From NCBI GenBank assembly GCA_046757845.1, contig JBHHYZ010000007.1, positions 7,896-71,895 of the forward strand: a DNA stretch of 64,000 nucleotides, in the 5' to 3' direction. Below, in pieces: positions 55,989-64,000 of the stretch (positions are counted from its first letter, which is position 1; each line of letters starts with the position of its first letter). The notes under the pieces were generated by a model. The model was not told where the DNA came from and searched no databases. It saw nothing but the letters and a program-made list of their open reading frames with translations. The position numbers and the translations under genes are program-made. Source of the stretch: Gemmatimonadota bacterium (GTDB taxonomy: Bacteria > Gemmatimonadota > Gemmatimonadetes > Palauibacterales > Palauibacteraceae).

Positions 55989-56770
55989 CGCCCGCTCCAG
56001 CGCGGGGTCCGCTTCTCGACGAACGCCCGCAGCCCCTCCACCGCGTCCGCGGTCGACATGAGCTCGTCCACGTAGAGGCGGCCCGCCTCGGCCATGGCGG
56101 CGGTCCACCCCTCCTCCGCCCGGCCCACCGCCCGCTTGGTCAGCCGCAGCGCCGCCGGGCTGTGCCGGGCGATCCGGCGCGCGAGCGCCTCGGCCGCCTC
56201 GTCCAACCGGCCGTCCTCGACCACGGAGCACACCAGCCCCAGGCGTCTGGCCTGACGGGCCGTGATCAGATCGCCCGTGAACAGGAGCTCGCGCGCCGCC
56301 GCGGCTCCCACCACCTGAGGGAGCCGCGCGCAGGCGGCGGGCGGGAACACGCCCAGCCCGATCTCCGGCTGGCCGAAGCGGGCGGTCCGGGCGGCCACGA
56401 TCAGATCGGCGGCCTGGGCCAGCTCGAACCCGCCGCCCACGCAACGCCCCCGCACGACGGCCACCGTGGGGGCCGGAAACTCCGCCAGGACGCGAACCGT
56501 GTCCAGGAACTCGGGGATCAGCGCTTCGTGCTCCGGCGGCAGGTGCTCGGCCACGTCCGCCCCCGCCGAGAAGTGCTCGCCGGCGGCGGAGAGCAACAGC
56601 ACGCACAGCTCGCGCTCCCGCGCCAGCCCCGCCATCGCCTCGCGCAGACGGGCCAGCACGTCCCGGGTCAGGATGTTGTAGGGCGGTCGATCGAGGATCA
56701 GCCGGGCGACCCGTTTCTGGCGCTCGACCCGGACCGATTTCGCGGACGTGGAGATGGCCATCTCACTCAT
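55985..56770 (-). CDS. enoyl-CoA hydratase/crotonase; candidate cyclohexa-1,5-diene-1-carbonyl-CoA hydratase (Dch-like)
   Basis: About 261 aa. Crotonase blocks FSAGADV and VRGRCVGGGFELAQAADLIVAA...FGQPEIGLGVFP. Start at ATG 56770 (8-nt overlap) or ATG 56761. Confidence 0.8.
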   Translation of the reverse strand: MSEMAISTSAKSVRVERQKRVARLILDRPPYNILTRDVLARLREAMAGLARERELCVLLLSAAGEHFSAGADVAEHLPPEHEALIPEFLDTVRVLAEFPAPTVAVVRGRCVGGGFELAQAADLIVAARTARFGQPEIGLGVFPPAACARLPQVVGAAAARELLFTGDLITARQARRLGLVCSVVEDGRLDEAAEALARRIARHSPAALRLTKRAVGRAEEGWTAAMAEAGRLYVDELMSTADAVEGLRAFVEKRTPRWSGR

Positions 56771-57872
56771 CTCCCGTCGCCCCATCCTCTCCGGCCAGCG
56801 GCGCGCCACAGGCACCGCAGTACGCGTGCCCGGCCGGCAGGTCCGTCGCTCCGCACTGCCCGCAGGTTCGCAGCGGCGGCCCCCAGACCGCTTCCGATGA
56901 CTCGCCCCGGGCGGCCCGTTCGCGAATCAGCTGGTAGCGCGGGGCGCGCTTCTCGACGAAGGCCCGCATGCCCTCGACCGGCTCCCAACACGCGTAGTGG
57001 AGGGCCAGCCAGTCCTGGGCGTGCCGCACCGTGGAGCTCCAGGCGAAGTCCTTGAGGAAGTTCACCTGCTGCTTCGTGTACCGGGTGCACTCGGGGAAGG
57101 TGGCCAGGAGCCGCCGGCACAGGTCCTCCACGAACGCATCCAGGCGCGACAGATCGATCGAGTAGCCGTCCTCGCCCTTCTGCGCCTTGCGGATCTCCTC
57201 CGTCGAGGCCTCCTCGGCCCAGCCGTCCGCCCGGCGCACCGACGGCACCACCCAGTTGACCAACCCCCACTCCAGCGCCTTGACGGCGGGAATCGGCTCG
57301 TTGAGCAACAGGATCTCGCGGGCCCGCTTGTCGCCCACCACCAGGGGGAGCCATTGGGTGGAGCCCCCGCAGGCCACCGAGCCCACCTGGGAGCCGACCT
57401 GCTTGATGTAGGCGTGCTGGGCCATCACGGTGAGATCGCAGGCCAGCTGGCTCTCGTTCCCGCCCCCCACCGCCATCCCGTTGAGCCGGGCGATCACGGG
57501 CTTGCCGGTGTTGAGGATGCTCTCGACGTAGGAGCGGAACAGCGCCATGTACTTCCAGTAATCGCGCGGCGCGGGCACGTACAGGTCCGCGTACTCCTTG
57601 ACGTCACCCCCCGTGCAGAAGGCCCGCGTTCCCGCGCCGGTGAATACGATGACGCCGACGGAGTCGTCGAAGCTCGCATCCCGAAACGCGGCTGCGAGCT
57701 CCTCGAGCGCCGCGGTGGAGTACGCGTTGTAGCGCTCCGGCCGGTGGATGGTGATGCGGGCGACCCCATCCGCCTTGTCGTACAGGACCTCGCGCAGATT
57801 CAGCGCCGCGGGATCTCGCGGCTCGAATCGTCGCTGCGCTTCCGGCGTCCCCGTCTCTGTTCGCGTCGTCAT
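56763..57872 (-). CDS. long crotonase-superfamily protein (MenB/Oah-like; candidate 6-oxocyclohex-1-ene-1-carbonyl-CoA hydrolase) with C-terminal Cys4 zinc-ribbon tail
   Basis: 369 aa. Contains FCTGGDVKEY, ARLNGMAVGGGNESQLACDLTVMA, an insertion (SVRRADGWAEEASTEEIRKAQKGEDGYSIDLSRLDAFVEDL), and the tail CGQCG-x11-CGACG. Confidence 0.75.
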   Translation of the reverse strand: MTTRTETGTPEAQRRFEPRDPAALNLREVLYDKADGVARITIHRPERYNAYSTAALEELAAAFRDASFDDSVGVIVFTGAGTRAFCTGGDVKEYADLYVPAPRDYWKYMALFRSYVESILNTGKPVIARLNGMAVGGGNESQLACDLTVMAQHAYIKQVGSQVGSVACGGSTQWLPLVVGDKRAREILLLNEPIPAVKALEWGLVNWVVPSVRRADGWAEEASTEEIRKAQKGEDGYSIDLSRLDAFVEDLCRRLLATFPECTRYTKQQVNFLKDFAWSSTVRHAQDWLALHYACWEPVEGMRAFVEKRAPRYQLIRERAARGESSEAVWGPPLRTCGQCGATDLPAGHAYCGACGAPLAGEDGATGDE

Positions 57873-57947: not shown

Positions 57948-60071
57948 TCAGTGGCCCTGCAGCTTCTCGGGCGCCTCCAGCGTGTTGGTCAGATCCGCCA
58001 CATAAGCCGGATCGTCCTTCTTCAAGGCCGGCCACCGCGCCCCCGGATCGGCGAGCAGGATCCCACCGATCTCCCCCATCGCCGGCTCGGGATCGGGCCG
58101 GCCCGTGGGGTTGTCGTACGCGACCACGATTCGGTACTGGTGGTCGCGGTGAATCGGGATGCCGCCCCGGGCCCACAGCAGAGCGGTCGGAACCCCCGTC
58201 ACGTGTCCGTTCTCATCCCGCTGCGGCTCGGCCTGCCAGACCACCTGGCCCGCCGTCACGTCCTCCAGGCGGATCGAGCGGGCCCGATCGTGCAGGTGAG
58301 CCCCTATGGCCACCAACCGCCCATCGATGGCGGGGCTCCCGGTCCAGGAGCGCTCCGTGCCACCCGCCGGCACGACGAAGGACTTCCGCCCCACCGGACC
58401 CATCACATCCAGGTAGAAGGGGTAGACATCCCTCGGGTGCACCGGGTTGGCGCCGGCTCTCGTGTAGGACAGAAACACGTGCAGGTAGGCTTCCGGGACG
58501 GCCGCCTTCGTGGGGCGCGCGAACATCGCGCTCACCATGAGCCGGGTCCCCTTCTTCACCGGATAGCCCAGGAAGCGCGGCATCTCCTGGCTTCCCGTCT
58601 CCCGCCCGGCCGCCATCACGCGCCGCGGGATCTCGGAGAACAGCTCCCGCTGATCGGGATCGATCAGGTTGATGTGGTGGAGCAGCTCGTCGGGCAGCTT
58701 GCGTCCCGCCCCGTCCGTCATCTCCCACCGGAACCCGTGCAACCATCCTTCCAGAGGCAGATCGATCAGCTGGACCGGCAGCCGCACGTGGTGTCCGCCC
58801 GGCGAGAGGCGGGCCGGGCCCACCACCAGCTCCAGCGCATTCTCGTCTGGATGGTCCACGATGCGGACCAGATGGTCTCGTCCCACCGGCAACGGAGGCG
58901 CCTGGGCGCGCGGACCCGATTCCGGGGCGACGGGGACCGGCTCGCGGAACCCCGGACCCTCCATCGTGGTGCTCGCCAGCACGTTCCGGTAGTCCGTCGC
59001 GTACAGGGGATCCCGCGGATCGGCCGGCGGCCAGTCGGCGGTGTTGCCCGGGATGAACACACCGGCCACCGACCCCATGCCGCCTTCGGGAATCGTCTTG
59101 CCGGTGGGGTTGTCGTAGGTCGCCGACACCCGGTAGACGTGGCTCGGATCGATCGGCACCCCCAGCTGCCCCTCCATGAACATCTTCACGGGGACGGATT
59201 CCAGCTGGCCGTCGGGCCGAGCCGTGGGGTGGATCTCATACAGCACTTTCCCCTCGGTCACGTCCTCGAGCTTCAGGTCCTGGGCGTAGGGGTGGAGGTG
59301 GCCTCCCACGGCGAGGATCGCTCCCGGGATCGCCGGACTGCCCTCCCAGGAGTGGACGGACCGGCCGGGCGGCAGGTCGAACGCCTTGCTGCCCAATGGA
59401 AAGCCCGCATCCATGTGAAACGGGTAGACGCGGTACAGCGGCGTCGTGCCCCGACTGTAGTCGAGGATCAGCCGGACGCGGACCCCCCGATAGCTCTGGG
59501 CGGTGGGGTTGTGCAGCATGGTGAGAAGGATGAACGGATCCCCTCCCTTGAGCGGCAGACCGAACAGCTCCTTGGGCACCCGTTGCGCCCCCGTCTCGCT
59601 GCCGGACGCGAACACGCGCCGCATGATCGGGAGGAACAGCTCCCGGCGCGTGGGGTCCAGCAGGTTGAAGTGGTGGATGACCAGGTGCGGCACCGGGTTG
59701 CCGTCCCGATCCACCGCCTCGGTCCGATAGCCGTGCACCATCAGGTCGAACGGAATCTCTCCGCGCTGCGGCATCATCTGTTGCAGCTTGTGGTGCGACG
59801 TGTGCGCCGGCAGGTCGATGGGCCCCAGCGCCAGCACCAACTCCTGCCGATCCGGATGATCCCGGATCGTGAGCAGATCGGACCCGAGCTCCTGGGCCCC
59901 GAGCGTACGGGCCGCCTGGGGCGCGAAGCACAGCACGGCCAGGACTGAGGCACCGCGCAGGGCCAGCCGGCCCGCATCTCCGCCGTCCGTCCTCCGCCTC
60001 CGGCGAACCGTCTGGTATCGACGCCGGATCGCACCGGCACGAATCGGGGTCATCCTCCGCCTCCTGCTCAT
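57948..60071 (-). CDS. secreted protein with two tandem His-rich domains resembling type II copper monooxygenase (PHM/DBH-like) catalytic cores
   Basis: 707 aa. Arg-rich N-terminus, then a signal-like segment ASVLAVLCFAPQAARTLGAQE. Two units of about 300 aa share the conserved motifs HH, WxHG(Y/F)R, (I/L)HH(F/I)NL(L/I)DP, G(G/A)HLH, YDNPTG and (G/A)MG. Confidence 0.7.
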   Translation of the reverse strand: MSRRRRMTPIRAGAIRRRYQTVRRRRRTDGGDAGRLALRGASVLAVLCFAPQAARTLGAQELGSDLLTIRDHPDRQELVLALGPIDLPAHTSHHKLQQMMPQRGEIPFDLMVHGYRTEAVDRDGNPVPHLVIHHFNLLDPTRRELFLPIMRRVFASGSETGAQRVPKELFGLPLKGGDPFILLTMLHNPTAQSYRGVRVRLILDYSRGTTPLYRVYPFHMDAGFPLGSKAFDLPPGRSVHSWEGSPAIPGAILAVGGHLHPYAQDLKLEDVTEGKVLYEIHPTARPDGQLESVPVKMFMEGQLGVPIDPSHVYRVSATYDNPTGKTIPEGGMGSVAGVFIPGNTADWPPADPRDPLYATDYRNVLASTTMEGPGFREPVPVAPESGPRAQAPPLPVGRDHLVRIVDHPDENALELVVGPARLSPGGHHVRLPVQLIDLPLEGWLHGFRWEMTDGAGRKLPDELLHHINLIDPDQRELFSEIPRRVMAAGRETGSQEMPRFLGYPVKKGTRLMVSAMFARPTKAAVPEAYLHVFLSYTRAGANPVHPRDVYPFYLDVMGPVGRKSFVVPAGGTERSWTGSPAIDGRLVAIGAHLHDRARSIRLEDVTAGQVVWQAEPQRDENGHVTGVPTALLWARGGIPIHRDHQYRIVVAYDNPTGRPDPEPAMGEIGGILLADPGARWPALKKDDPAYVADLTNTLEAPEKLQGH
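57981..59879 (-). repeat. intragenic tandem duplication at protein level (unit 1 nt 58977-59879, unit 2 nt 57981-58877)
   Basis: Manual alignment of aa 65-365 against aa 399-697 gives a constant offset of 332-334 aa for every conserved His/Met motif. Nucleotide identity is low, so the duplication is old. Confidence 0.8.
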
Positions 60072-60129: not shown

Positions 60130-60729
60130 TCACGCCGACCTCGCCGCGGGGGGCCACGAGAGCGCCAGTCCCCCGACCAGGTGCTCCGCGAACCGAGCGC
60201 CCAGCTCCGGCGCGCTCATCGAACCGTCCGGATCGTACCAGCGGGCGATCCAGTTGATCGCCCCCAGCAGAGCCAGAGTCGCGATCTTCGGGTCCACGGG
60301 CCGAAACTCCCCGGCTTCCACGCCCTCGGCCACCAGCTTCCGGACGCTCATCTCGTACCGGTCCCGGCGGGCCACGACCTCCGCTTGATGTTCCCGCGAC
60401 AGAGCCGGCACCTCGAAGGCCAGGGGAGAGCCTTGAAGAAGCTCGGTCATCACCCGGACGTGTTCTCGGATGACCTGCCCCAGCCGCTCCGTGGCCGTAT
60501 CATATCGGGTCCGCGCTTCGTCGAGCACGCGCTCCAGCTCGCTCAGGGAGCGGCGGTGGCACTCGTATAGGATGGACTCCTTATCGGGAAAATAATGGTA
60601 CAGCGCGGTCTTTCTCAGACCCAGGCGCCCGGCGATGTCCTCCAGGGTCGTCCCGTGGTAGCCCTTCTCGCGAAACGCGAGGAGAGCGGAGTGGAGGATC
60701 TCGTCCCGCCGCCGCAGCCGCTTCTTCAT
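60130..60729 (-). CDS. TetR/AcrR family transcriptional regulator
   Basis: Trimmed to MKKRLRRRDEILHSALLAFREKGYHGTTLEDIAGRLGLRKTALYHYFPDKESIL (TetR HTH). Possible longer N-terminus from ATG 60801 or 60816. Sits 58 nt upstream of the tandem-domain gene. Confidence 0.85.
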   Translation of the reverse strand: MKKRLRRRDEILHSALLAFREKGYHGTTLEDIAGRLGLRKTALYHYFPDKESILYECHRRSLSELERVLDEARTRYDTATERLGQVIREHVRVMTELLQGSPLAFEVPALSREHQAEVVARRDRYEMSVRKLVAEGVEAGEFRPVDPKIATLALLGAINWIARWYDPDGSMSAPELGARFAEHLVGGLALSWPPAARSA

Positions 60730-60800
60730 GACGTGCGGCGTGGGCCGCGGCGGACTCGGTCGCCCGGGGGCGGCCTGGGATCCGGCGGAGGCGGCTGGCA

Positions 60801-60970
60801 TTTTTCTCGAACGCATGGTAAAAATATTTAAGGTTGTTGGCTCCCTGTCAACCGTCGCCGAGATGCGGAAGTTCCCGGCACCGCGCATCCGTCACCGGAC
60901 TTGCAGGCGGCCGGACCGGATCCAATGATTAAGGATACAAAGGTATGAAAGGGGGTCGGCAGACGCCAGA
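60801..60970. promoter_or_regulatory. divergent TetR / Rrf2 intergenic control region with AT-rich patches
   Basis: tttttctcgaacgcatggtaaaaatatttaaggttgttgg (60801-60840) and tccaatgattaaggatacaaaggtatgaaaggggg (60921-60955). The second contains the short palindrome ATAC-aaag-GTAT. These are the lowest-GC stretches in the window. Confidence 0.4.
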
Positions 60971-61435
60971 ATGCTCTATTCCCTCACCTGCGAATACGCG
61001 ATTCGCGCGCTGACGTATCTGGCCCAACGCCCGCCCGGCCGACTGTCCCTGCTCGGTGACATCGCGGAGGCGTGCGACCTCCCCCGTCCGTTTCTGGGAA
61101 AGATCCTCCAGGATCTGGTCCGGCACGGGTTCCTGCGGTCCTCACGGGGACCGAGCGGCGGTTACGGGCTGGCCTATCCTCCGGCGGAGATCACCGTGCT
61201 GCAGATCAAGCAGGTGTTCGACGGACTCGAGGATCTGGAGCGCTGCGCGGTGGGACTGGACCCCTGCTCCGATGAGACCCCCTGTCCTCTCCACGAGCGC
61301 TTCAAGCCGTTGCGGGCGGCGATCCTCGCCTACCTGGAGGAGACGACGCTGGACGACCTGGTGCGCGGCCTGTGGGAGAAACAGGCGTTGCTGGAGCGGG
61401 CGAGGATCCGGGCCGGCCTGGCCAGGGAGTCCTGA
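60971..61435 (+). CDS. Rrf2 family transcriptional regulator with Fe-S type Cys3 motif (IscR/NsrR/BadM-like)
   Basis: 154 aa. N-terminus MLYSLTCEYAIRALTYLA and wHTH. Cys92-x6-Cys99-x5-Cys105 followed by His108 (CAVGLDPCSDETPCPLH, nt 61244-61294). Confidence 0.88.
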   Translation: MLYSLTCEYAIRALTYLAQRPPGRLSLLGDIAEACDLPRPFLGKILQDLVRHGFLRSSRGPSGGYGLAYPPAEITVLQIKQVFDGLEDLERCAVGLDPCSDETPCPLHERFKPLRAAILAYLEETTLDDLVRGLWEKQALLERARIRAGLARES

Positions 61436-61439
61436 GCGG

Positions 61440-63191
61440 TCAGTCCGCCGGGCACGCCGCCCGGTGCAGCTCGGCCAACAGCTCATCCAGCTCCAGAGCG
61501 TGCGCCCCGGCCGCGAACTCGAGCGTCTTGTCACGACCGCAGCACAGGTCCAGCCCATGGTCCGCCAGCACGGCCTCGGTTGCGGGATAGGCCTCGAAGA
61601 CCTGGGCGATCGTGGAGCTCGGCGTGATGGAGGTGCGAGTGAAGCGGACGATCCACGCTCCCGAGCTCTCCGGACGGGCGCGGTGCGCGAAGCCCCTGCG
61701 GGCCAGCGCGCGGCAGAGAGGAACCGGCTCGAACGGAGCCACGATCTCCAGTGCCCCACCCTCCGGGATCCGCTCGGCGGACGCCAGGATCCGGTTCAGC
61801 GGCTCCTCTCCCCTGGCCAGGATCGGCCGCACGTCCAGCCGATGGCGGGTCCCGCCACTCTCCGCCGATCGGTCCGCTCCCGCCCGGGCCGGCTCCGAGC
61901 GGGCCGCACCGGGCGATCTCACGACTTCCAGGGCCAGGCTCAGAGCGCCCAGTCCGAATATCCCCGCGCCCAGCACGGCGCCCGAACGGCTCGCCGCATC
62001 GATGGCCAGCGCCAGCGTCCCCGCTCCGGCGGAGAGCAGGAGCAGCCGAATCCAACCCAGCGGCCCGCTCCCGAGATCACCGATCCGGGGGACCCCCGGC
62101 TCTCCGGCCCGCTTCCCGAAGCGGTGGAGCCATCTGAGGAACGGCACGATGCGGGCGTACACGCCTCCAACCATGAGGGCCAGCCACCCCAGGATCCCGA
62201 CCACGCCGTACGCCGCCACCGCCTGCGGATCGGCGGGCCGGGAGAGCAGCAGGCCGAGGCCGAGGACGGTGGCGACGCCCAGGAAAGCATGCGCGACCGC
62301 CATCTGCACCAGATCCGATCCCAGCCGGCGGCGCTCCCGGCGCCGGAAGTAGGAGCCAGCCAGATACAGATACAGCGCGAGACTCGCCGCCAGGACGACG
62401 CCCCCTCCCACCTCCAGCGCCCCGACGCCCCGGATCGTGCCTCCGGCGAAGGCGCACAGGCCGACGAGCAGGAGCGGTCCGATCCAACGGAGCGGCCAGC
62501 TTGGATGGACCCGGGCAAGGAGGAACATCGGGAGCAGCCGGCTTCCGACCCCCACGACCGCGAGCGTGGCGAACCCCACGGCGGCCAGATGGGCGTGCGC
62601 CGCGAGAATCCCGGTGCGGTCCACGCTCCACCAGCCCTGATAGGCGCCGATGTTGGCGCCGATCAGGAGGAGAGCCAGGACCAGCACCAGCCGGGCGCTC
62701 TGCACGTAGGGACCGATGTAGCGGACGCGGGCCGGCGGATCGCTCGGCGGCCGAAGGTTCCAGATGTGCACGCCCACGGCCGCCAGGATCAGCAGCCAGC
62801 CGGGAGCGAGCCAGACCGGAGCCTGGAACCAGGAACCGCCCGCCAGGCACGCGATCCCACCCGTGAGAGCCCAGAACCCGGCGTGGCCGGTACGGATCCC
62901 GCGGGCCGGCGTCTGGAGGGCCACCGGAGCGATCTCGTACAGGGCGCCGAACAGCGTCGTCGTGATCCAGCCCAGCGTGAACAGATGGGTGACCGCGACC
63001 ACCCGGAACTGGAGGAAACCGCCGCGGGCCAGATCCGGCGCCACCGCCACCAGCCCCGCGGATCCCAGGACGAGCCACACGAGAGCGGCCGCGAAGTGCT
63101 CCGCCGGTAGAGAGAAGGGCGGCGCGAACCGCCGGGCCGAACGCTTCATCCTCCCGGGTTCGGACCGCCTTCGACGTCCAGTTTCGGCCAT
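61440..63191 (-). CDS. 12-TM His-bearing membrane protein fused to C-terminal DUF2249-like and ScdA_N (RIC N-terminal)-like domains
   Basis: Start at ATG 63191 (GAGGGGGG upstream) or ATG 63149. Twelve hydrophobic helices include THLFTLGWITTTLFGALYEIAP and AHAHLAAVGFATLAVVGVGSRLLP. The tail (61440-61850) has LDVRPILARGEEPLNRIL...ALEIVAPFEPVPL (DUF2249-like), then TIAQVFEAYPATEAVLADHGLDLCCGRDKTLEFAA (ScdA_N-like CCG motif). Confidence 0.7.
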   Translation of the reverse strand: MAETGRRRRSEPGRMKRSARRFAPPFSLPAEHFAAALVWLVLGSAGLVAVAPDLARGGFLQFRVVAVTHLFTLGWITTTLFGALYEIAPVALQTPARGIRTGHAGFWALTGGIACLAGGSWFQAPVWLAPGWLLILAAVGVHIWNLRPPSDPPARVRYIGPYVQSARLVLVLALLLIGANIGAYQGWWSVDRTGILAAHAHLAAVGFATLAVVGVGSRLLPMFLLARVHPSWPLRWIGPLLLVGLCAFAGGTIRGVGALEVGGGVVLAASLALYLYLAGSYFRRRERRRLGSDLVQMAVAHAFLGVATVLGLGLLLSRPADPQAVAAYGVVGILGWLALMVGGVYARIVPFLRWLHRFGKRAGEPGVPRIGDLGSGPLGWIRLLLLSAGAGTLALAIDAASRSGAVLGAGIFGLGALSLALEVVRSPGAARSEPARAGADRSAESGGTRHRLDVRPILARGEEPLNRILASAERIPEGGALEIVAPFEPVPLCRALARRGFAHRARPESSGAWIVRFTRTSITPSSTIAQVFEAYPATEAVLADHGLDLCCGRDKTLEFAAGAHALELDELLAELHRAACPAD

Positions 63192-63474
63192 CGCGGACCC
63201 CCCTCGCGCGTTGGGGCGAGCCACTGTCGATCCCGCGAGGCCGCCCCCACCAACGGATCCGCGAGAACCTCTCGCATCGAGGGGCACGGGACAAGCGGCG
63301 AACAGCCGCCTCGCCGAAGCCACGAGACGGACCGCCCCGGAGCCCTGCCCGGCGCCCGGGCCGGCATCCCGCCGCCCGTCCGCGGGAGCCGGAGGCCGCA
63401 TCTTCCCACCCGGCCCGCTCGCGTGCATACTCACATCCTGACTGGTCAAACGACCTCCGAACCCGGGGACGGAA

Positions 63475-64000
63475 GTGCTCGCGACGACACAGATCATCCT
63501 TCGAGAGATCCGACTCCCGCTGCGCGAACCGTTCCGCATCTCTTCCGGGACCACCACGCACCGGCGCATCGCTCTGCTCGAGCTCCGTGACGCCGACGGA
63601 CACCGCGCCTGGTCGGAATGCGTGGCCGGAGAGCGACCCAACTACAGCCCGGAAACCATCGACACCGCGTGGCTGGCCATCCGGGAGTGGCTGGCGCCGC
63701 GCGTTCTGGAGCACGAGTTCGCCGAGCCCGCACGGGTCGCCCCGGCCCTGGCCGATGGAATCCGAGGCCACCGCATGGCCAAGGCCGCCGTCGAGATGGG
63801 AATGTGGGCGCTGGCGGCCGAGCGCGAGGGGCTCCCGCTCTCCGTTCGGCTGGGCGGAACCCGCGAGCACATCGAAACCGGAATCTCGCTCGGCATCCAA
63901 CCCACGCCCGCAGCCCTCGCGGAGAAGGTTCGCGAGGCGCTCGCCGCGGGCTACCGGAAGGTCAAGCTCAAGATCCGCCCGGGAGAGGATCTGGCCAACG
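63475..64000 (+). CDS. enolase-superfamily protein, o-succinylbenzoate synthase / N-acylamino-acid racemase-like (3' partial at window edge)
   Basis: Open frame absent from the ORF track because it has no stop inside the window. My translation from GTG 63475 is VLATTQIILREIRLPLREPFRISSGTTTHRRIALLELRDADGHRAWSECVAGERPNYSPETIDTAW...GISLGIQPTPAALAEKVREALAAGYRKVKLKIRPGEDL. An in-frame TGA lies at 63439-63441. Confidence 0.75.
   Translation, partial: MLATTQIILREIRLPLREPFRISSGTTTHRRIALLELRDADGHRAWSECVAGERPNYSPETIDTAWLAIREWLAPRVLEHEFAEPARVAPALADGIRGHRMAKAAVEMGMWALAAEREGLPLSVRLGGTREHIETGISLGIQPTPAALAEKVREALAAGYRKVKLKIRPGEDLAN

Follow-up and report, generated by a model that had tools for sequence, protein, structure and literature searches.

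An exported-looking fusion of two predicted PHM-fold cores in a Gemmatimonadota bacterium, with conserved candidate copper ligands

The window, which is the whole stretch of 64,000 nucleotides analysed here, comes from a Gemmatimonadota bacterium (GenBank assembly GCA_046757845.1, contig JBHHYZ010000007.1). On its reverse strand, at 57948..60071, lies an open reading frame (ORF) of 707 amino acids (aa), where the stop codon is counted within the coordinates. Database gene calls start at Met7 (60053), which leads to a protein of 701 aa (P0001). All parts of the protein described below are on this same strand.

The ORF starts with a predicted export signal region, aa 1-59 (59895..60071), found with a hydropathy scan and an alignment of the N-termini of homologues. 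Unit 1 covers aa 60-365 (58977..59894) and unit 2 covers aa 399-707 (57951..58877). Between them is a Pro-rich linker, aa 366-398 (58878..58976), delimited using a full-length AlphaFold2 (AF2) model and an alignment of fusion proteins. Both units are predicted to be cores with the fold of PHM, peptidylglycine alpha-hydroxylating monooxygenase. Unit 1, with two beta-sandwich domains and a C-terminal helix, is assigned to a type A on the basis of AF2, Foldseek and its identity to free-standing type-A proteins. Unit 2 is assigned to a type B, by its identity to unit 1 and to single type-B proteins, and again by AF2 and Foldseek.

The internal repeat is confirmed by BLASTP: aligned over 305 columns with 8 gaps, the two halves (aa 41-385 and aa 386-707) are 38% identical, at E=2e-70. 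This similarity is far above chance. The original prediction, which was made from the DNA letters and their translations, had aligned aa 65-365 with aa 399-697 at an offset of 332-334 residues. BLASTP and a scripted position check bear this out, and all its motif coordinates were exact. The script finds these motifs paired between unit 1 and unit 2: HH at 93/94 and 427/428, H113 (vHGYR) and H445 (lHGFR), HH at 133/134 and 465/466 with RELF following at 143 and 475, HLH at 258-260 and 592-594, YDNPTG at 319 and 652, and finally M332 and M665.

PHM binds two coppers, CuH through H107, H108 and H172, and CuM through H242, H244 and M314. HH and HxH are 124 residues apart in unit 1, 126 in unit 2 and 134 in PHM. 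From HxH to Met the distances are 72 and 71 residues, versus 70 in PHM. These spacings are also as predicted.

The two units had been taken for tandem copies, or in other words an internal duplication. The repeat is instead a fusion of two anciently diverged paralogues, A and B, for which separate genes are the normal state. Type-A proteins that occur singly have H93 and H187, and unit 1 shares 55-61% identity with them. Single type-B proteins carry Ala at the 187 column, and with these unit 2 shares 56-61%. Identity between the two units is only 37-38%. In a neighbour-joining tree (no bootstrap values), the window protein and P0002-P0004 group together in both halves: their unit-1 halves form one clade inside A, and their unit-2 halves one clade inside B. 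A recent tandem duplication was considered and rejected: each unit is closer to its own singles than to the other unit, and the two sit in separate clades.

The order is A-then-B in 5 out of 5 fusions. The halves of P0005 branch apart from the other fusions in this tree, and P0005 may therefore be an independent fusion.

The A and B genes are mostly found in Gemmatimonadota, as separate and unlinked genes. A scan of 185,579 species-representative genomes delivered 64 loci, all of them single-unit, and 61 of these are labelled Gemmatimonadota or a lineage within it. The scan pattern matches solely A- and B-like sequences, with type B making up the majority of loci, and the scan therefore does not define how far the wider family extends taxonomically. 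In two metagenome-assembled genomes (JBFILW01 and CAZJXR01), A and B are on different contigs. Given that A and B are mostly separate genes elsewhere, their fusion is a Rosetta-stone indication, and it suggests that A and B work together.

The free-standing type-A/B proteins (P0006-P0010; P0011-P0014, P0024, P0025) are homologues with the same style of signal peptide, the same core and the same ligand pattern. They differ in having one core and a length of about 390-410 aa, many have His/Met-rich tails, and they occupy separate loci.

By homology, the protein belongs to a large unannotated family, which includes types A and B and has no database name. A word-indexed search found 83 relatives with E from 1e-37 to 0, all named 'hypothetical', and none with a Pfam domain. 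When 1.84 billion cluster representatives were searched exhaustively with a profile, 1998 clusters matched at E<=1e-3, of which 1134 at E<=1e-10. These roughly 2000 clusters are defined at 50% identity, and nearly all are single units of 330-420 aa. The homology to single-core members holds over their full length, with the HH, E-T, HxH, Y.N and Met columns present. In the literature no description of a bacterial PHM-fold family was found; subscription papers were mostly outside this search, so an earlier description is possible.

Some family members (P0165/P0362 of 557-567 aa, P0099 of 720 aa and P0131 of 506 aa) are apparently fused to membrane modules. Among such members is one with a C-terminal PAP2 phosphatase domain, from Gemmatimonadales and named PAP2 family protein by NCBI. 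Another has an N-terminal membrane region that by eye resembles a glycosyltransferase-2, with no GT2 match in Pfam. Yet another has a His-rich tail and then a DUF2231-like transmembrane segment. These fusions hint at an envelope-associated role, and some of them are possibly gene-calling artefacts.

The predicted fold comes from two models. For unit 1 (aa 60-385, from a 36-sequence alignment), AF2 reports a predicted local distance difference test score (pLDDT) of 92.2 and a predicted template modelling score (pTM) of 0.87. The model is all-beta, with two sandwiches plus a C-terminal helix. When it is compared to the PDB with Foldseek, ranks 1-26 are all PHM or human dopamine beta-hydroxylase (DBH). 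These matches range from E=8.4e-11, for the PHM core PHMcc (PDB 1PHM, 1OPM, 3MLJ), to 3.6e-8, and have a probability of 1.00, around 300 aligned columns and around 12% identity. In the full-length model (pLDDT 89.2), both units share the strand pattern, unit 2 has a pLDDT of about 87-97, and PHM is again the best match. AlphaFold and Foldseek had been proposed as a check in the original prediction; they return a PHM-like two-sandwich core, and no unrelated beta-sandwich family takes its place. That each unit is a PHM/DBH-like two-sandwich core is supported by these models.

Other double jelly-rolls rank lower, like the PM2 capsid protein P2 (E=5e-7) and chains that are PNGase F-like or DUF2961 (around 1e-5 to 1e-4). 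Proteins of this fold, for example PNGF-II (4R4X), BF (3KS7), GH172/DUF2961 (4KQ7) and PM2 P2 (2VVF), resemble the window protein in having two consecutive eight-stranded jelly-roll sandwiches. However, their Foldseek scores are 4-6 orders weaker than that of PHM, and they lack the HH / HxH / Met set.

The ligands were compared through profiles. The rat PHMcc query sequence is 100% identical to PDB 4e4z_A (PAM residues 45-356). With hhalign, the family profile (190 sequences) aligns to a PHM profile (98 sequences) in a co-linear way over 194 columns, at P=5.5e-4 and a probability of 30%. The alignment pairs HH133/134 with PHM H107/H108, and H258/H260 with H242/H244. It places H187 (in MLHNP) within 2 residues of H172, and it stops at the GG before M332, facing the 'IGG' upstream of M314. 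Domain by domain, N versus N gives P=1.2e-4 and C versus C gives P=0.011, while the controls, reversed or across domains, range over P=0.025-0.54. Forcing hhalign to align the C-domains globally led to a meaningless result, which was discarded. Usable signal is only there with profiles on both sides: the 36-sequence alignment against the single PHM sequence has a probability of 0.45%.

In unit 1 the candidate ligands are the CuH-like pair His133-His134 (59670..59675), at the start of a beta-strand, His187 as a candidate third CuH ligand (59511..59513), the CuM-like His258-Leu-His260 (59292..59300), and the CuM-like Met332 in GGMG (59076..59078). All six are at starts or ends of strands in the AF2 model, a placement which we take to match the PHM structure.

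Unit 2 has, by alignment and conservation, His465-His466 (58674..58679) as its CuH-like pair, His592-Leu-His594 (58290..58298) as its CuM-like HxH, and Met665 in PAMG (58077..58079) as its CuM-like Met. At the place of the PHM H172 equivalent it has Ala518 (MFARP, 58518..58520), the hallmark of type B. This means that, by sequence, unit 1 carries six PHM-equivalent ligands and unit 2 five, and that the CuM-type set of HxH plus Met appears in both. The original reading of HH, HxH and Met as PHM-like ligand positions is supported, and its caveat on the third CuH histidine is borne out. Its suggestion that each unit is complete holds by sequence for unit 1 only, since unit 2 and all of type B have Ala at that place.

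In the next strand of unit 2 there is His531 (YLHVF, 58479..58481). A His in this column accompanies Ala at the 187 column in 16 of 33 sequences, making it frequent in type B and not universal. It is possible that His531 acts as a substitute third ligand.

Conservation was counted over the 190 family sequences. H133 is present in 185, H134 in 186, H258 in 189, H260 in 187 and M332 in 182, so that the HH, HxH and Met columns are 96-99% conserved. Nothing in the family is better conserved than this core PHM ligand set. The third CuH His varies, with H187 in 114/190 sequences and Ala in 33/190. Other motifs shared by the two units turn out to be only partly conserved across the family: H93 (120/190), H94 (54/190) and H113 (75/190). 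HH93/94 was rejected as a conserved metal pair on these counts.

Further polar residues are well kept, like E159 (183/190), T160 and R143 (178/190 each) and R152 (177/190). Near the Met are Y313 (177/190), R314 (180/190), Y319 (184/190) and N321 (180/190). N316 and Y318, with which PHM binds the peptidyl-glycine carboxylate along with R240, fall outside the aligned region; what the family has upstream of its Met is this Y313, R314, Y319 and N321.

Unit 2 retains H428, HH, M516, HxH, H644 and M665 in 5 out of 5 fusions, and position 518 is always Ala. The unit 1 sites are intact in the window protein, P0002 and P0005.

Separately, the last residue of the protein, His707 (57951-57953), is invariant in 34/34 aligned fusion, type-A and type-B sequences, in contexts like ...LQGH, ...GGHGHG and ...AHDHG. 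It sits some 10-12 residues past the C-terminal helix, in a low-confidence tail that could bend back towards a metal site.

The N-terminus has an Arg-rich n-region, followed by a hydrophobic core at aa 36-54 (LALRGASVLAVLCFAPQAA). A likely cleavage site lies between LGA and QE, and homologues have it too. From these signals the protein appears to be exported, probably to the periplasm, with a mature length of about 650 aa. Its only Cys, C48, is in the signal region, which makes the mature part Cys-free. Of the family cores, 82% are also without Cys.

Our favoured reading, to which we give slightly better than an even chance, is that this is an exported two-core PHM-fold protein acting as a periplasmic copper-dependent monooxygenase or oxidase. 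In each core, the N-terminal sandwich with HH would be the counterpart of the CuH electron-transfer site of PHM, and the C-terminal sandwich with HxH...Met the counterpart of the CuM site, which binds O2. By analogy to PHM, DBM and tyramine beta-monooxygenase (TBM), each core would hold two mononuclear coppers that are magnetically uncoupled. The CuM-like site would activate O2 and then hydroxylate a C-H bond of the substrate, and the CuH-like site would relay an electron from a reductant.

PHMcc is the closest known system. The likenesses are the two-beta-sandwich core, the N-domain HH and C-domain HxH that fall on their PHM counterparts, the Met around 70 residues past HxH, the unit 1 His near H172, and an extracytoplasmic location, which for the window protein is predicted. 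There are differences however. Identity is low, the HH-HxH distance is shorter, PHM is eukaryotic and the window protein bacterial, the window protein has two cores per chain, and its unit 2 has no H172 equivalent. PHM also has five disulfides.

DBH particles are dimers or tetramers that contain at least two catalytic cores (PMC12164859). Human DBH (PDB 4ZEL) is in this sense loosely analogous to a chain with two cores. Its DOMON and disulfide-linked dimerisation domains are absent here: there are no Pfam matches and the mature protein has no Cys. In addition, the cores of DBH are identical subunits, whereas those of the window protein are diverged paralogues in a fixed A-then-B order.

Several observations weigh against the favoured reading. 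The first of these concern sequence. When the 707-aa protein is scanned against Pfam with hmmscan at E<=10, the sole match is BigA_beta at E=0.33, which is noise, and an NCBIfam scan returns no match. The Pfam check suggested originally, with Cu2_monooxygen (PF01082) and Cu2_monoox_C (PF03712), detects neither the protein nor any of 129 diverse relatives at E<=1; the Pfam scan of these relatives includes one SURNod19 match, at E=0.12. Among PDB sequences, phmmer with the protein gives only a noise match to PatF (E=0.3), and hmmsearch with the family profile gives nothing. The PROSITE-type signatures HHM..F.C and H.F....HTH..G occur in 0/190 family members and not in the window protein, while the same regular expressions do match verified rat PHM, at residues 107 and 235. 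The profile-profile probabilities are only 30-55%, and the C-domain comparison is weak by itself (P=0.011). The relationship to the Cu2_monooxygen family, the copper type II ascorbate-dependent monooxygenases, is one of superfamily or fold, and not of sequence-level membership.

Other adverse points concern structure, ligands and neighbouring genes. Foldseek TM-scores are modest at 0.43-0.55, with a high root-mean-square deviation, and the orientation between the domains is therefore unlike that in PHM crystal structures. The PHM disulfides are absent. Arg240, which binds substrate in PHM, aligns to Gly256. Unit 2 and about 40% of the family have no third CuH His. Beside the family members examined there was no cytochrome, DOMON domain, copper chaperone or reductase.

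The A-B arrangement has its own difficulties. The pTM of the full-length model is 0.55, which provides no support for a defined A-B interface. In the underlying alignment MAFFT put every single-unit sequence on unit 2, so that unit 1 was only 5 sequences deep. Linker residues 369-387 (310-328 in the model) have a pLDDT below 50 and are predicted to be disordered. The model looks like two well-folded modules on a flexible linker, with no confident mutual packing. Furthermore, unit 1 of P0003 and P0004 is without H93, M185, H187 and M332, even though in these two proteins unit 1 is overall as conserved as unit 2 (61% each). The fusion architecture therefore does not require a complete CuM-type site in unit 1, and the two active sites envisaged in the original prediction are not a rule for it.

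In another reading the protein binds no metal at all. It would then be a PHM/PNGase-F-type double sandwich that works as a periplasmic hydrolase or as a glycan- or peptide-binding protein, with histidines that do acid-base chemistry or are structural. The failure of sequence methods to connect the family to Cu2 monooxygenases fits with this, as do the missing PHM signatures, disulfides and Arg240, and the PNGase F-like and GH172/DUF2961 chains among the Foldseek matches (E around 1e-5). We consider it quite improbable. The PHM/DBH matches are 4-5 orders better than the PNGase-like ones and occupy all the top ranks. What is conserved is the PHM ligand set, with the same order and spacing and in aligned columns, and a near-invariant Met is unusual outside Cu(I) sites.

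The main rival to a copper-dependent monooxygenase or oxidase is a non-catalytic copper-binding role. The protein would be a periplasmic copper buffer, chaperone or sensor, whose sites or tails sequester Cu(I)/Cu(II) or pass it on. This is unlikely in our view. The C-terminal tails of the family bear on it, as they do on the favoured reading. His/Met-rich tails are typical of periplasmic copper-handling proteins. Many family members have tails rich in His, Met and Asp; over the family, His makes up 10.3% and Met 5.4% of the tails, versus 4.1% and 2.7% of the cores. This enrichment is a weak hint of metal handling, and the window protein itself has no such tail. That some copies lost ligands while the gene was retained would also suit a binder. 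Against this, two separate and differently built sites, kept at 96-99% in around 2000 clusters, look like the signature of a catalytic PHM rather than of a plain binding site, and the conserved R143, R152, E159, T160, Y313, R314, Y319 and N321 suggest a substrate pocket.

The genes around family members bear on the same question. Type B is found in a syntenic housekeeping block, consisting of 2-oxoacid dehydrogenase, lipoyl synthase, ferredoxin, the type-B gene and fpg. Other clades have unrelated neighbours with nothing in common. A search of the neighbourhoods for a conserved partner gene, including one for a precursor peptide, found none, so no operon is conserved. The housekeeping surroundings, and the lack of a conserved substrate-related or reductase gene nearby, would be in line with a copper binder. 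However, the neighbourhoods examined contained no cop, cus or pco genes either.

In the window, a TetR-family regulator is located upstream at 60130..60888, also on the reverse strand. Its start is probably internal, as gene calls have 199-223 aa. Downstream of the fusion gene are two crotonase-family (enoyl-CoA hydratase) genes and a BcrC/HGD-D-like gene. The best NCBIfam models for these neighbours are Oah, Dch and BcrC, with all scores under the curated cut-offs. The placement between a TetR gene and a benzoyl-CoA module, as noted originally, is correct with that reservation. The gap to TetR is 58 bp and that to the Oah-like hydratase is 75 bp, all on the same strand, and no terminator-like sites were found between these three genes.

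It is tempting to regard the protein as a component of this TetR-regulated cluster for benzoyl-CoA-like anaerobic aromatic degradation, doing for example a periplasmic pre-oxidation of aromatics. The short gaps, the downstream matches and the return of the TetR/hydratase arrangement in two other contigs all speak for it. Both of these contigs encode the identical protein however, while the fusion orthologues P0003 and P0005 have different neighbours, without the TetR/benzoyl-CoA-like context, and all single-unit relatives have unrelated ones. The arrangement is thus not conserved at other fusion loci, and the NCBIfam scores of the neighbours stay under the cut-offs. Benzoyl-CoA reductase chemistry is moreover cytoplasmic and oxygen-sensitive, and a PHM-type enzyme is extracytoplasmic and requires O2, which makes the link biochemically awkward. 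A functional link was rejected on these grounds, and membership of the cluster is very improbable.

Some further observations were made around the fusion gene. A strong sigma-70-like promoter match is at 60823-60851 on the reverse strand (TTGACA, 17 nt, AATATT; 10/12 positions). It is inside the longest TetR ORF and upstream of the TetR start used by the gene caller, and from it TetR, the fusion gene and the hydratase genes could be transcribed together.

The Oah-like crotonase (56763-57872, reverse strand, 369 aa) scores 211 bits on the NCBIfam Oah model, versus a cut-off of 464 bits. It has a C-terminal CxxC...CxxC extension that looks like a zinc ribbon (CGQCGATDLPAGHAYCGACGAPL), which is unusual for enoyl-CoA hydratases.

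On the other side, at 61440-63641 on the reverse strand, is a long ORF with an apparent multi-helix membrane region and then C-terminal DUF2249 and ScdA_N domains, the latter of the iron-sulfur repair type. It has 733 aa as the longest ORF and 583 aa as called in locus L072, and no NCBIfam match. An Rrf2-family regulator (60971-61435) on the opposite, forward strand ends around 4 bp from the end of this ORF. Together they could be a nitric oxide or iron-sulfur stress module.

Two more observations concern relatives elsewhere. A divergent clade, around 30% identical to unit 1, is found at L074:6001-7176 (P0081) and L078-L081:7001-8176 (P0080). Here the gene follows PTPS by 30 bp on the same strand, within a cluster for tetrahydromethanopterin/methanofuran one-carbon transfer and pterin metabolism, in one lineage. 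This cluster has Amidohydro_3 (FhcA-like), FTR, GXGXG, MCH, RimK-like, CitG and PTPS, and further 4HFCP_synth, AA_kinase, Pterin_4a and a pterin-binding DUF6513 protein. The clade could have a role related to one-carbon units or linked to pterins, or use a reductant of that kind.

At type-B loci there is a small acidic ORF of 86 aa (L001:7744-8004), which overlaps the type-B start codon by 4 bp and has no signal peptide and no Pfam match. It is 51-65% identical across about a dozen type-B loci, being also at homologous positions in L010, L018, L020, L033, L034, L038, L039, L043, L048 and L067. It is absent from the window.

The textbook examples of non-coupled binuclear copper monooxygenases are PHM, DBM and TBM, and they are treated as eukaryotic. 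The table in a 2020 metalloproteome review has PHM and DBM under eukaryotes only (PMC7435645). A more specific form of the favoured reading is that the family consists of genuine bacterial members of this class: a large periplasmic branch without disulfides, acting on new substrates and independent of ascorbate. In the window protein, A and B would then form a natural hetero-pair, and a single chain would have two active sites and as many as four coppers. This is tentative, and we lean somewhat against it.

If copper is not bound, the finding shrinks to a new fold family with no assigned function. If the copper reading is true, the family reveals that an enzyme class regarded as eukaryotic has a large bacterial branch: around 2000 clusters, undetected by Pfam and NCBIfam, that have kept the fold, and all six ligands or five of them, without the disulfides. 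Copper enzymology would gain a simple model of the CuH/CuM mechanism that can be expressed in bacteria, and the family would be relevant to how PHM and DBM arose in evolution. The A-B fusion provides a ready-made construct for probing the cooperation of A and B. Gemmatimonadota are a widespread phylum in soil and sea, with few characterised enzymes. For them, the copper reading would point to new periplasmic hydroxylation chemistry.

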